Shown piece after piece: positions 15,638 to 56,215 of a stretch of DNA of 64,000 nt. The number at the start of each line of letters is the position of its first letter. The first letter of the stretch is position 1. Position numbers and translations under genes: made by a program. The notes under the pieces were generated by a model. It did not search any database and was not told the DNA's origin. It was given only the letters and a program-made list of their open reading frames with translations. Origin of the DNA: Clostridia bacterium (GTDB lineage: Bacteria; Bacillota; Clostridia; TANB77; CAG-508). The stretch lies in NCBI GenBank assembly GCA_045593405.1, contig JAZNWN010000023.1, positions 38,662 to 102,661 on the forward strand, read 5' to 3'.

Positions 15638-15717
15638 ACAGGGGTCGCACCCTTCGGCGCCCCGAAATATTTAAATATATAATCTATTTGCGGGTCGCCC
15701 TGGGGTGCGACCCCTAC
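15638..15717. repeat. Inverted REP doublet (REPIN-like)
   Basis: caggggtcgcacccttcggcgccccg and, on the minus strand, gtaggggtcgcaccccagggcgacccg. Confidence 0.7.
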
Positions 15718-15831
15718 GGTATAACAATAAAATAAAAAATCGTTTTTCAAAATCCTTGCATATATATAAAAATTGTTATAAAATACACTAATGGCTAACA
15801 ACTGTAATATGATAATTCGAAGGGAGAAAAT

Positions 15832-32096: not shown

Positions 32097-32212
32097 CATA
32101 AAAATAAATCCTATGAGAATGGGATTTATTTTTTTAAAATAGTGTAAATTATAACATAATATGATATAATTCTACTAGATTTTACAAAAGACAGAAAATA
32201 AAAACAGGTGAA

Positions 32213-32467
32213 ATGATGAGTAAAATATATAAAGAGTTAAATAAATCAGAAACAGAAACTACGATAAATGTATTATATGGAGAAAATAAGTTATCAATTT
32301 ATACAAACAAGGTTCCTTTACAAAAAGAATTGAACAAAATATTAGGAGAGCCTACAAAAGAATACAAAATAAAAAGGTCTATTGTAGGAAGCTATTGGGA
32401 TATAAATTTAAATGAAAAACAAAAAATATCAAAAATGGTGCTAAAAGCAAATATTTTTGAACTATAA
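32213..32467 (+). CDS. Hypothetical protein
   Basis: 84-aa ORF with RBS-like AGGTG and an upstream TATAAT. Confidence 0.6.
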   Translation: MMSKIYKELNKSETETTINVLYGENKLSIYTNKVPLQKELNKILGEPTKEYKIKRSIVGSYWDINLNEKQKISKMVLKANIFEL

Positions 32468-32535
32468 AAATTAAAAAGATATCTAAAATGAATTGACAAT
32501 ACCTAATTTAATATGTTAAACTATTTACATATTTT

Positions 32536-32656
32536 AGGAGTGTACCTAGCAAATTAAATGCAAGCGGTACAGAGCAACAAACAGTTGCTTACACAGAAGT
32601 AAGATAAAGGTCTTATGGAGGAGTCTTAATAAAGATTTTTCCATGAGCCTTTTTTA
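32536..32656 (+). ncRNA. ykkC-like riboswitch variant with overlapping terminator
   Basis: GTGTACC..AGCGGTACA P1, gcaac/gttgc stem, ACAC..TAAGATAAAGGTCTTA..GGAG P3; terminator ending ccatgagcctttttt; promoter TTGACA at 32493. Confidence 0.6.
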
Positions 32657-32675
32657 GTTATAAGGGGGAATTGAA

Positions 32676-33218
32676 ATGAACAATAAAGGTACAGTGGTTT
32701 TAGAAACAGAAAGATTAATTTTAAGAAAATTTAAATTAGAGGATGTAGAAGAAATTTTTAAAAATTGGGGTAGTGATGATGAAGTTACTAAATATGTAAG
32801 ATGGTCTACTCATAAAACAATTGAAGATACAAAAGAGTACCTAGAAAATGTTATGCAAAAATATGAGAATGACGAATTTGAATGGGCATTAACTTTGAAA
32901 GATACAGGAGAACTCATTGGAGCAATGGGTACATTTGTTAGTGAAGATGATAGAATTGAAATAGGATATAATACTGCAAGAAAACATTGGAGAAATGGAT
33001 ATACAACAGAAGCATTAAGAGCAGTAATGAATTATTTAATTAACGAAGTGGGAATTAGAAGATTTAGGTGTTCACATGCAAAGTTAAATCCCGCTTCTGG
33101 AGCAGTTATGCAAAAAGTTGGCTTTAAATATGTTAAAGATGAATATGTTGAAAAATTTGATAAAAGTGCAATATTTGACACAAAAGTTTATTATTTAGAT
33201 ATAGAGGATAATGTTTGA
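32676..33218 (+). CDS. RimJ/RimL-type GNAT acetyltransferase
   Basis: LETERLILRKF, EIGY..WRNGYTTEA, NPASGAVMQKVGF. Confidence 0.9.
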   Translation: MNNKGTVVLETERLILRKFKLEDVEEIFKNWGSDDEVTKYVRWSTHKTIEDTKEYLENVMQKYENDEFEWALTLKDTGELIGAMGTFVSEDDRIEIGYNTARKHWRNGYTTEALRAVMNYLINEVGIRRFRCSHAKLNPASGAVMQKVGFKYVKDEYVEKFDKSAIFDTKVYYLDIEDNV

Positions 33219-33400
33219 TGGAACAGTATAAAATATTAAAAGATTTAATAAGTTTTAACACAATAAAAGATAAAGAAAATAAAGAAATAATTAATTATAT
33301 AGAAGAATACTTAATAAATTTAGGCTTTATAACTGAATATGAAAGTTACAATAAATTAATAGAACAATACAAACAATTAATAATTGAATTTTGCAAGTAA
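33215..33400 (+). pseudogene. Internally deleted M20/ArgE-like peptidase remnant
   Basis: N-terminal ILKDLISFNT..IINYIEEYL..LGF appears fused to a terminal-type helix; no catalytic motifs. Confidence 0.45.
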
Positions 33401-33505
33401 AGCAATTTATTTTTAAATACAGTATGACATAATGAAAAATATTATTTTAACAAAACAAGCACTCCTTTCATATTATATACAAAAAAATGAAGGGAGTTTT
33501 TAATT

Positions 33506-34208
33506 ATGAATTATGAAATAATGATGAATGGTAATGTTAAAATAGGAGAGATGGCTCCGGATTTTGAAGCACTAACAACTTGTGGAAATATAAAACTAAG
33601 TGATTTTAGAGGGAAATGGGTTGTTTTATTTTCACATCCGCGGAGATTTTACCCCCGTATGTACCACAGAGTTTATTGCTTTTGCAAAATCTAATACATA
33701 TTTTAATAAATTAAATGCACATTTAATTGGTTTAAGTATAGATAGTAATCCATCACATTTAGCATGGATATATGATATTTACCAAAAAACAGGAATAGAA
33801 ATTCCTTTTCCAGTAATTGCAGATAGAAGTGGAGAAATTGCAAGAAAATATGGAATGTTATCTACAGTTCCTAGTAAAACAGAAACTGTTAGGAATGTTT
33901 TTATTATTGATGATAAAGGAGTTATTAGAGTGATTCTTACATATCCTTTAAATGTAGGTAGATGTATTCCAGAAATATTAAGAATAATAGAGGCATTGCA
34001 AACTGCAGATTGCAATGATGCAGCAATTCCAGCAAACTGGGTTCCAGGAGAACCAATTATAGTTCCTAAACCTAATACTTTTTATGAATTACAACAAAGA
34101 GCAGAAGAAATTCAAAAAAATAAAAATGGAATGAGCTGGTATTTAAGTTTTAAAAAACCATCTGAAAAATGTGAAAATATACCAGAAGAGCGTAAATGTC
34201 ATGATTAA
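33506..34208 (+). CDS. 1-Cys-type peroxiredoxin, +1 shift at CGG 33641
   Basis: GKWVVLFSHP|GDFTPVCTTEF...YPLNVGR...PANW. Confidence 0.9.
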
Positions 34209-34453: not shown

Positions 34454-34462
34454 AGGGGCTTT

Positions 34463-34487
34463 TAGGGGGCGCAGCCTTCGGCGCCCC
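34463..34487 (+). repeat. REP hairpin
   Basis: tagggggcgcagccttcggcgcccc. Confidence 0.55.
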
Positions 34488-55422: not shown

Positions 55423-56192
55423 AAACTAAGAAAATAATCTACTATAAAGATGAATTGAATGATGAATTTTCCAGAGCAAAAATAGTCCCAAGAGTAATAG
55501 ATGAAAAATACAAATATATTCATCATAAGCTATGGGACTTTGCTTCACTTTGCGTACAAAACATATTGAGTATGCCAATAAAAATATTATATTCTAAAGT
55601 AAAATTTAGGATTAAATATGTAGGAAAAGAAAATTTAAAACCATATAAAAAACAAGGTTATTTTATATATGTAAATCACACTCAAGCTTTTGCAGATACA
55701 TTTATACCAAGTGTGCCTTTATATCCTAAAAGAAACTTTTTTATAGTAAACCCTGAAAACGTATCTATTAAATTTATGGGAACAATTGTACAATTATTAG
55801 GAGCTTTACCAATACCTAGCAACAAACAAGGAATGAAAAACTTTTTAGATGCAATTAAAAAACATATAGAAAAGAAACACTCAATTACAATATATCCAGA
55901 AGCTCATATTTGGCCATATTATACAAAAATAAGACCGTTCAAGGCAGTATCATTTAAATACCCAATAGAATTAGATACACCAACATTTTGTATGACAAAT
56001 ACGTATCAAAACTATGGTAAAAATAACGATAAAATGAAAATTGTAACATATATAGATGGCCCATTTTTTCCAAATAAGACCTTACAAAAAAACGAACAAA
56101 AACAAGATTTAAGAGACCAAGTATACAACCAAATGATAGAAAGAAGTAAAAATAGTAATATAGAACATATAAAATATGAGAAAATTATGTAG
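55419..56192 (+). CDS. PlsC-family acyltransferase
   Basis: NHTQAFAD, IYPEAH. Confidence 0.8.
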   Translation: MKTKKIIYYKDELNDEFSRAKIVPRVIDEKYKYIHHKLWDFASLCVQNILSMPIKILYSKVKFRIKYVGKENLKPYKKQGYFIYVNHTQAFADTFIPSVPLYPKRNFFIVNPENVSIKFMGTIVQLLGALPIPSNKQGMKNFLDAIKKHIEKKHSITIYPEAHIWPYYTKIRPFKAVSFKYPIELDTPTFCMTNTYQNYGKNNDKMKIVTYIDGPFFPNKTLQKNEQKQDLRDQVYNQMIERSKNSNIEHIKYEKIM

Positions 56193-56215
56193 GGGGCGCA
56201 ATCATGCGCCCCTAC
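56189..56215. repeat. GTAG REP hairpin
   Basis: Minus strand reads gtaggggcgcatgattgcgccc, identical to the 14903 copy. Confidence 0.7.

Follow-up and report, generated by a model that had tools for sequence, protein, structure and literature searches.

A remodelled ykkC-like leader RNA, likely a ligand-responsive ON switch, upstream of a GNAT acetyltransferase gene in uncultured Clostridia

The stretch of DNA analysed here, referred to as the window, comprises 64,000 nucleotides of contig JAZNWN010000023.1 from a Clostridia bacterium (assembly GCA_045593405.1), and all coordinates follow its numbering on the + strand unless stated otherwise. Reading of the region 32200-33500 identifies a leader of ∼125 nt upstream of a gene for a GNAT acetyltransferase; its promoter-proximal RNA, the feature at 32533-32655 (+), folds into five helices, P0, P1, P1a, P2 and P3, arranged around a four-way junction. 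We are confident that this is a conserved structured leader related to the subtype-2 scaffold of the ykkC riboswitches, and we consider it likely, if with less assurance, that it acts as a ligand-responsive transcriptional ON switch of that kinship. As judged from its sequence, it appears to be a trimmed and remodelled version of the scaffold that serves the guanosine tetraphosphate (ppGpp), phosphoribosyl pyrophosphate (PRPP) and ADP/CDP sensors, fitting none of the subtypes 2a-2d, and it is probably a previously unrecorded member of the ykkC family. The ykkC scaffold is a leading example of one RNA fold with several specificities, namely for guanidine, ppGpp, PRPP and ADP/CDP, together with one orphan.

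An earlier, sequence-only reading of this DNA had proposed a promoter, P1, P1a, P2, ACAC, P3, GGAGG and a terminator, and each of these lies where it had been placed. Helix P0, formed by UUUAGGA (32533-32539) and UCUUAAU (32624-32630) and closing the four-way junction, had been missed. The elements of the leader are as follows.

32493-32522 (+): sigma-70-type promoter, with TTGACA at 32493, an 18-nt spacer and TG-n-TAAACT; 10 of 12 consensus positions are matched.
32533-32539 (+): 5' strand of P0, UUUAGGA, with its partner at 32624-32630.
32541-32571 (+): P1 arm of 31 nt, made up of P1, the junction UA, the P1a hairpin and the junction AAGC, without P1b.
32541-32546 and 32566-32571 (+): P1, UGUACC paired with GGUACA.
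32549-32561 (+): P1a, a short GCA-AAUUAAA-UGC hairpin.
32572-32590 (+): P2 hairpin, GAGCAAC-AAACA-GUUGCUU, directly abutting P1.
32591-32598 (+): ACAC (32591-32594), then the purine linker AGAA.
32599-32616 (+): P3 hairpin, GUAAGA-UAAAGG-UCUUAU.
32617-32623 (+): GGAGGAG, between P3 and the 3' strand of P0.
32624-32630 (+): 3' strand of P0, UCUUAAU, shared with the terminator hairpin, whose top and loop it builds.
32610-32655 (+): intrinsic terminator, an 18-pair stem (32610-32627/32632-32649) with loop AAUA and a U run at 32650-32655.

Transcription probably starts a few bases upstream of 32533, and a TTGACA/-10 pair comparable to that of the window precedes 10 of the 12 homologous leaders described below. 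When the aptamer segment of the window is folded alone, the entire four-way junction is obtained. The full leader has a minimum free energy of -43.7 kcal/mol, compared with -26.5 ± 3.5 for shuffled sequences (z = -5.0; none of 200 shuffles was as good), and its minimum free energy fold is the terminator.

Homologues were gathered through the GNAT protein, by means of one genome scan, a protein search that gave 393 relatives, 12 genomic-context look-ups and one metagenome pattern scan. Twelve distinct leaders were obtained (that of the window and L002, L006, L008, L012, L013, L035, L036, L042, L045, L047 and L050), whose sources are uncultured Clostridia or gut-type metagenomes throughout; each leader lies immediately before a GNAT gene of the same clade. 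Other GNAT relatives (L001, L003, L039, L044 and L051) have no leader, showing that the element is facultative within the protein family. Variants of the leader region 32583-32655 are also found in contigs of gut and bovine-gut metagenome runs, for example ...CACCUACACAGAAGUGAGCUUGUAGCCC..., and the family therefore exceeds the 12 sequences analysed. The pattern CTTNNGNAGGAGTCTTAATAANGA had two matches in JGI (Joint Genome Institute) metagenomes, one of them genuine (L042), and the pattern GGAGTCTTAATAAAGA had 21 matches in viral contigs, all due to chance and with the motif missing. No match was obtained with the leader in blastn searches of plasmids and phages, or with the GNAT alignment in viral contigs, and the family model found no second copy of the leader in the window or the loci of its relatives. 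The element appears to have a narrow distribution, in Clostridia of the gut and rumen.

Comparison of homologues for covariation, which the sequence-only reading had put forward as a check, bears out the structure. A covariance model (R1) was built from the 12 leaders, which were then re-aligned to it (alignment A4). In A4 the five-helix structure has 97.2% of its 356 pair cells paired, compared with 33-40% for slid partners; compensatory change is seen in 13 pairs, and the covariation score was reached by none of 500 shuffles. These changes are concentrated in the P1 arm and in P2, with five of the six pairs of P1, all four of P1a and four of the seven of P2 showing compensation, P1 and P2 being 100% paired. 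P3 (95.8% paired) has no compensatory pairs, its variation being limited to one-sided G.U/G-C/A-U steps. P0 (97.6% paired) is nearly invariant, as AUUAGGA/UCUUAAU in the alignment of the 12, and likewise has no compensatory pairs in A4; its changes are one G.U to A-U step and the exchange of the terminal A-U for U-A in L050. Because A4 was fitted to R1, RNAalifold was run as a check on the aptamer part as aligned by MAFFT without the model, and from this independent alignment P0, P1, P1a and P3 are recovered.

The unpaired bases of the junction do not vary among the 12 leaders; they comprise the A-G that follows P0, the UA, three bases of GAGC (its A, G and C), the block UACAC, and AGGAG. The junction that reads AAGC in the window is GAGC in the remaining 11 leaders, and the base following ACAC is A in 11 leaders and U in L013. 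In the segment corresponding to 32617-32623, AGGAG is preceded by GG in nine leaders, GA in two and UG in one, while the consensus of the P3 loop, AUAAAAG, is that of ykkC RNAs. Contacts to ppGpp and PRPP are made by the last A of P0, the unpaired G that follows, the G-C of the P1 bulge and ACAC (PMC9881157). All of these positions are invariant in the 12 leaders, the first two being represented in the window by the last A of the P0 5' strand and the unpaired G32540.

The relationship to ykkC is also recovered by a structural model built from known aptamers. Sequences of PRPP aptamers were taken from the supplement of PMC5912903; 15 were aligned (A5), the published structure with P0 added was imposed, and a covariance model (R2) was made. 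The search space was 114.5 kb, consisting of the window and 18 loci, and the E-values, obtained with a shortened calibration, are approximate. With default filters R2 gave only two matches in the 114.5 kb, and both are leaders, L013 scoring 25.2 bits (E 8e-6) and L012 scoring 19.1 bits (E 7.5e-4). Without filters, scores of 9.2-25.2 bits put 10 of the 11 locus leaders above everything else, the best other match having 8.5 bits; L042 was not listed. The leader of the window was the top match in 40 kb, with 18.9 bits (E 3e-4) compared with 12.6 bits for the runner-up. The alignments span the whole model, with P0, P1, GAGC, P2, ACAC, the P3 loop and the 3' strand of P0 in register. The rows for the F. 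ignava purC aptamer, L013 and the window read as follows.

F. ignava purC: GGAAA G UGUAUC UAGGGAUCC...GGACC GAGC GGUACA [P2] UACAC CAGA GGG AGAAAAG CCC AGGAGGAUAGG UUUC
L013: UUUAAGA G UGUAUC UAA GUGUUAUAUAAUAUAC GAGC GGUACA [P2] UACAC UUUUU AUAGGA AAUAGAAG UCUUAU GAAGGAG UCUUAAU
Window: UUUAGGA G UGUACC UA GCAAAUUAAAUGC AAGC GGUACA [P2] UACAC AGAA GUAAGA UAAAGG UCUUAU GGAGGAG UCUUAAU

The blocks that are collinear in the leaders and the PRPP aptamers are the A-G after P0, GUGUACC-UA, GAGC-GGUACA, P2, UACAC, the AUAAAAG loop and GGAGGA. Searched over the whole window at the gathering threshold, Rfam 15 gave no match to the leader. The likeness to subtype 2 that had been noted from the sequence is upheld by the PRPP-model matches, the four-way junction, the ON logic and the contact bases; membership by an Rfam model, on the other hand, fails. 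We conclude that the leader appears to be related to the ykkC subtype-2 scaffold and too diverged for the curated models. The window has a single match at an Rfam gathering score, to the pemK RNA motif (619-700; 35.0 bits, with a threshold of 34.8).

The arrangement of the terminator suggests how such an RNA could act. The earlier observation that the 3' side of the P3 region overlaps an intrinsic terminator is correct: the stem 32610-32649 shares the 3' strands of P3 and P0, and since it takes up both strands, terminator formation excludes both helices. The 3' strand of P3 also builds the base of the terminator, so that P3 acts as an antiterminator, and P3 and P0 are weak, A-U-rich helices that jointly cover the whole 5' half of the terminator. 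The terminator itself is conserved, with 99.5% of its cells paired in the 12 sequences and three pairs showing compensatory change, and three terminator-like sites, that of the leader among them, were present in the 1.6 kb scanned, where 0.2 were expected. One alignment column (92, U or C) is common to P3 and the terminator and covaries with its partners in both, indicating that the RNA preserves two structures which exclude one another, as is characteristic of a switch.

We envisage that P1/P1a and P2 would fold in both states of the nascent leader. When ligand is absent, the 3' strand of P3, GGAGGAG and UCUU would pair with the downstream AAGAUUUUUCCAUGAGCC to give the 18-bp terminator, and transcription would stop at 32650-32655. 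A ligand at the junction, where the lining is formed by the invariant A-G that follows P0, by the G-C of GAGC, and by ACAC and AGGAG, would stabilise P3 and the 7-bp P0, in which the 5' end pairs with UCUUAAU. The 5' half of the terminator would then be sequestered, and RNA polymerase would read into the GNAT gene, and into that of an M20 deacylase in the relatives. Since P3 and P0 occupy the 5' half of the terminator, any ligand that stabilises the junction would block termination and turn the genes on. Ligand binding by the leader is something that we infer, and the ON direction is suggested by the geometry of the overlap and by analogy with subtypes 2a-2c.

Several observations weigh against a ligand-binding relative of ykkC. 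P0 and P3 are almost invariant and provide little compensatory evidence, P0 having the one terminal swap and two U.U mismatches at that position. The purine linker AGAA is replaced by UUUUU in L013, so that conservation does not extend to this part of the presumed pocket. The examples all belong to a single GNAT clade in related uncultured Clostridia, and their conservation could in part reflect shared ancestry. Features reported to be necessary for ppGpp binding are absent or altered, namely a P3-P0 linker of 4-5 nt, the lower stem of P3 and a P1 arm no shorter than 41 nt. Even at E ≤ 10, the search with Rfam's own models that the sequence-only reading had proposed yields, for 32400-32760 of the window and 1045-1190 of L013, chance matches to microRNAs, small nucleolar RNAs and small RNAs and nothing else. 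A sequence-only nhmmer search with a hidden Markov model of 16 PRPP aptamers likewise finds no leader in the window or any of the loci, and the similarity to the PRPP aptamers therefore resides in structure and short blocks.

The alternative that best survives is that the leader is a divergent (p)ppGpp (2a) or PRPP (2b) riboswitch, with a shortened P1 arm and a known ligand, which would make the GNAT/M20 pair subject to the stringent response or to PRPP. We regard this as unlikely, although it deserves serious weight. The contact nucleotides, that is, the A-G after P0, the G-C of GAGC and ACAC, are retained, yet the C that follows ACAC and contacts PRPP is A or U in the leaders. Genuine PRPP aptamers with very short P1 arms do exist (that of NZ_LDZY has 33 nt), but in the leaders the GGG/UCC of P1a has gone, as has the lower P3 stem CCG/CGG. 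In PRPP aptamers G96 pairs with the first C of ACAC, and its mutation to A confers specificity for ppGpp (PMC6031431); the base aligned with it is G in 10 leaders and A in two. A starvation-type regulon would be plausible for a 2a-like switch, but the P3-P0 linker appears to fall below the 4-5 nt of ppGpp binders and the gene association fits neither class. Finally, although the PRPP-derived covariance model recognises the leaders, the Rfam models give no match.

It is improbable, in our estimation, that the effector is not a small molecule at all. In this case the ykkC scaffold would have been re-used to bind a protein (the GNAT itself, or a ribosomal protein that the GNAT modifies) or an uncharged tRNA, or the terminated 120-nt transcript would act as a small RNA. 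Such a role might be read into the strong remodelling of the pocket and into two invariant AGGAG boxes, one at the 5' end and one before the 3' strand of P0, which resemble Shine-Dalgarno sequences and are possible contacts for protein or 16S rRNA. The invariant bases are, however, exactly those that line the ligand pocket of subtype 2, and this coincidence makes a protein or ribosome role for the boxes less economical; the leader, moreover, always lies in cis, directly upstream of the GNAT gene. As for tRNA, the leader has no T-box sequence, no specifier-loop features and no Rfam T-box match. A T-box leader was rejected for its lack of a match to RF00230 and because the P3 antiterminator has neither bulge nor T-box sequence, and a T-box or K-turn was likewise rejected as an interpretation of the P1 internal loop, which lacks the sequences that define either.

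A leader-peptide attenuator, in which translation of a short open reading frame such as MQAVQSNKQLLTQK (32558-32602) chooses between the P3 antiterminator and the terminator, can be dismissed as very improbable: short frames are present in most leaders, but no frame, start codon or Shine-Dalgarno sequence is common to the 12. The GUG of GUGAGC opens a frame of 13-15 codons ending in AYTE(V/I)R or TYTE(V/I)(R/S) in six of the 12 leaders, and the frames of the window and L002 end in LLTQK just before P3; that GUG is nevertheless GCA in the window, GCG in L035 and ACG in L013, and none of the candidate starts is preceded at a workable distance by a Shine-Dalgarno sequence. The AGGAG at the 5' end, which could suggest one, is separated by 0-1 nt from the closest start in L002 and in the window, and elsewhere no start follows it. 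What peptide conservation there is follows from the conserved junction nucleotides, and the compensatory changes in the helices alter the 'codons'.

We therefore return to the reading of the leader as a ykkC-related ON switch, and to the genes that it would control. Two features follow it in the window.

32663-33218 (+): ribosome-binding site AAGGGGGA and regulated gene, with an open reading frame of 180 codons at 32676-33218.
33215-33400 (+): remnant of an M20 deacylase gene, comprising its first 43-61 codons; in tblastn, residues 1-43 match with 74% identity.

The first encodes a GNAT that belongs to the Acetyltransf_3 (RimJ/RimL-like) family (Pfam PF13302, E 3.6e-35). It has only weak matches in NCBIfam, to RimL, RimJ and AAC(6'), and its sole relative in the PDB is 3FBU, a protein of unknown function. 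The gene had been called atypical for a ykkC RNA, and indeed a GNAT lies outside the known ykkC gene associations. In at least five of the 12 loci (L006, L008, L012, L035 and L047) the GNAT gene is followed, in the same direction, by a gene for an ArgE/DapE-like M20 deacylase, whose full length in the relatives is 343 aa; the window genome has lost this second gene of the operon. To judge by these family relationships, the regulated pair appears to consist of a RimL/MccE-like N-acetyltransferase and an ArgE-like deacylase. The GNAT/M20 genes are often found beside metG, and the genes upstream of the leader vary (metG, rotamase, thioredoxin, methyltransferase), from which it follows that the leader travels with the GNAT gene rather than with metG.

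Some further variation is seen around these genes. At L047:201-2531 a single leader is followed by two tandem GNAT genes, a 37-codon open reading frame and the M20 deacylase gene, indicating that the regulated unit can be a four-gene operon. Between metG and the leader, the window has an 84-codon open reading frame without a family match (32213-32467); the metG-leader spacer in L006, L008, L012 and L035 is too short to hold it, and it is thus an insertion in the window. A GC-rich palindrome (ATGTAGGGGTCGC...GCGACCC) lies between the terminator and the GNAT start at L008:1129-1157 and L012:1129-1157, with variants in L035 and L047. Related copies are found in the window at 15707-15718 (-), 34461-34472, 42436-42447 and 56188-56199, four matches compared with none expected by chance; the palindrome looks like a repeat of the REP (repetitive extragenic palindromic) or MITE (miniature inverted-repeat transposable element) type, belonging to these AT-rich genomes. 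Farther downstream, a peroxiredoxin gene (33506-34208) is split in two overlapping frames, 33506-33694 and 33600-34208.

The pocket and the genes together give some indication of the ligand. Retention of the nucleotides that contact phosphate and base leads us to expect a phosphorylated ribose or nucleotide anion, and the ligand is probably an anionic compound of this kind. PRPP is made less probable by the rebuilt floor of the pocket and by the novel gene association, as is ppGpp to a smaller degree. The replaced segment in the P1 arm and the atypical gene had led to the earlier proposal of a new ligand for the leader, and possibly there is one: that the ligand is a compound sensed by no known subtype has, in our judgement, only slightly less than an even chance. 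That it is (p)ppGpp or a related alarmone seems rather unlikely, and that it is PRPP distinctly improbable, with the rest of our expectation falling to there being no small-molecule ligand. Candidates could include a nucleotide-linked amino-acid compound, such as an aminoacyl-adenylate-like toxin or metabolite, a 3',5'-bisphosphorylated nucleotide of the coenzyme A type, or an uncommon alarmone such as pGpp or ppApp. Only tentatively, as something somewhat short of even likelihood, do we suggest that the leaders constitute a new riboswitch class, in effect a further ykkC subtype, in which the P1a/P1b docking element has been lost and the floor of the pocket rebuilt for a ligand of no known riboswitch.

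The variant retains the core that contacts phosphate and base while dropping P1a/P1b, thought to be a constant of the fold, and would thereby show how far the scaffold can shrink. It may present a new ligand to be found, and offers a way into the function of the uncharacterised GNAT and M20 enzymes, a pair that is common in gut and rumen Clostridia; if the leaders do form a new class, the identity of the ligand would reveal the role of this widespread orphan pair. It would also mean that annotation based on Rfam overlooks genuine relatives of known riboswitches.

Among the known systems, two are comparatively remote. Guanidine-I RNAs (subtype 1, RF00442) have a distantly related scaffold, with a P1 arm, ACAC and an A-rich P3 loop as in the leaders. 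They have no conserved P0, however, and have A in place of the C of GAGC (PMC6031431), whereas the leaders have P0 and, in all 12, the C; their usual genes are guanidine carboxylases and exporters, and RF00442 gives no match to the leader. Gd4v, an orphan variant of guanidine-IV (PMC9788692), also controls GNAT genes by antitermination, but its fold is an unrelated one of the kissing-loop mepA type, with no likeness to the leader in sequence or structure. In the full-text literature, whose coverage excludes many subscription papers, no ykkC variant tied to GNAT genes was found, and Gd4v was the only GNAT-linked orphan encountered. Nor is the leader type present among 384 published aptamers, none of which contains UACACA.

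Subtypes 2c (ADP/CDP), associated with NUDIX and HAD hydrolases, and 2d (orphan), associated with EamA and TauE transporters (PMC7266159), are variants of the same scaffold in pocket and gene association. They are set apart from the GNAT-linked leaders by their descriptions rather than by comparison at the nucleotide level.

The ppGpp riboswitch (2a; PMC6003355, PMC9881157) has the same scaffold and ON logic as the leaders, and in it too the G96 position is not strictly conserved. The conserved A-G at the end of P0 touches the 5' phosphates in ppGpp aptamers, in which P0 is conserved as well (PMC9881157). In other respects the two diverge. The P1 arm of ppGpp aptamers is 41-119 nt long, compared with 30-37 nt in the leaders, and the P1-ACA motif is found in only two of the 12 leaders (the window and L013). 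ppGpp binders have a P3-P0 linker of 4-5 nt, (A)NARG or NAGG, and RNAs with 3-nt linkers bound very poorly (PMC9881157); aligned to the PRPP aptamers, the leader segment [G/U][G/A]AGGAG, which appears to fit neither linker pattern, leaves only 2-3 nt before P0, a register that is uncertain since the lower P3 stem is missing. The genes controlled by ppGpp riboswitches are those for branched-chain amino acids and glutamate synthase, natA, selB and rex, in contrast to GNAT.

In comparison with the PRPP riboswitch (2b; PMC5912903, with the structure in PMC6031431), the leaders are changed in the P1 arm, in P3 and the bases around it, and in P0. As had been remarked from the sequence, the conserved GGGUUCCG..GAC segment is replaced by a short hairpin, and the conserved P1a/P1b sequence has gone. 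In terms of the PRPP aptamers, AGGGUUCC ... GGNCC (P1a/P1b) gives way to a covarying hairpin of 3-5 bp with no conserved sequence, and P1b is lost; of the CUAGGGUUCC ... GGNCC-GAGC internal loop and P1a/P1b that characterise the P1 arm of subtype 2 in general, the leaders keep only UA(A) and GAGC. C78, after ACAC, contacts the 5-phosphate of PRPP (PMC6031431) and is invariant in the 15-sequence PRPP alignment, as are C123-C124, whereas the leaders have A or U after ACAC. The lower P3 stem of the PRPP aptamers, CCG/CGG, is absent from the leaders, which have AGAA opposite GGAG (purine-purine), or UUUU opposite GAAG in L013. The upper P3 stem, three pairs of GGG/CCC in PRPP aptamers, is extended to six A-U-rich pairs (GUAAGA/UCUUAU), while the loop, in subtype 2 an A-rich one of 7 nt (AUAAAAG/AGAAAAG), keeps the consensus AUAAAAG, and P0 is lengthened from about 4 bp to 7 bp. 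The segment 32617-32623 is the counterpart of the S-turn, lower P3 stem and P3-P0 linker of the PRPP and ppGpp aptamers but is 3-4 nt shorter, the linker itself being ∼3 nt longer in the PRPP aptamers. PRPP riboswitches are associated with purine biosynthesis, the leaders with GNAT and the M20 deacylase.

Against these differences stands a framework that is common throughout. The aptamers of ykkC subtype 2 form a four-way junction from P0, P1 (with P1a/P1b), P2 and P3, in which P0 is made from both tails of the aptamer and is part of the expression platform (PMC6031431; PMC9881157). In the H. modesticaldum purB construct (PMC5912903), the 3' strands of P3 and P0 are also part of the terminator, as they are in the leaders, and the order of elements, the four-way junction, the placing of the terminator on these strands and the ON logic are those of the PRPP riboswitch. 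Individual blocks also correspond, namely P1 (GUGUAYC ... GGUACA), the UA and GAGC junctions, the A(U/G)AAAAG loop of P3 and GGAGGA. All 12 leaders have the A that closes the P0 5' strand in subtype 2 and the unpaired G before P1, and all 12 keep the G-C dinucleotide of the P1 bulge (G43-C44, the target of the M2 mutations in PMC5912903). P2 abuts P1 and is followed by ACAC, within an invariant UACAC, and the purines that precede the 3' strand of P0 in subtype 2 are likewise found in the leaders.

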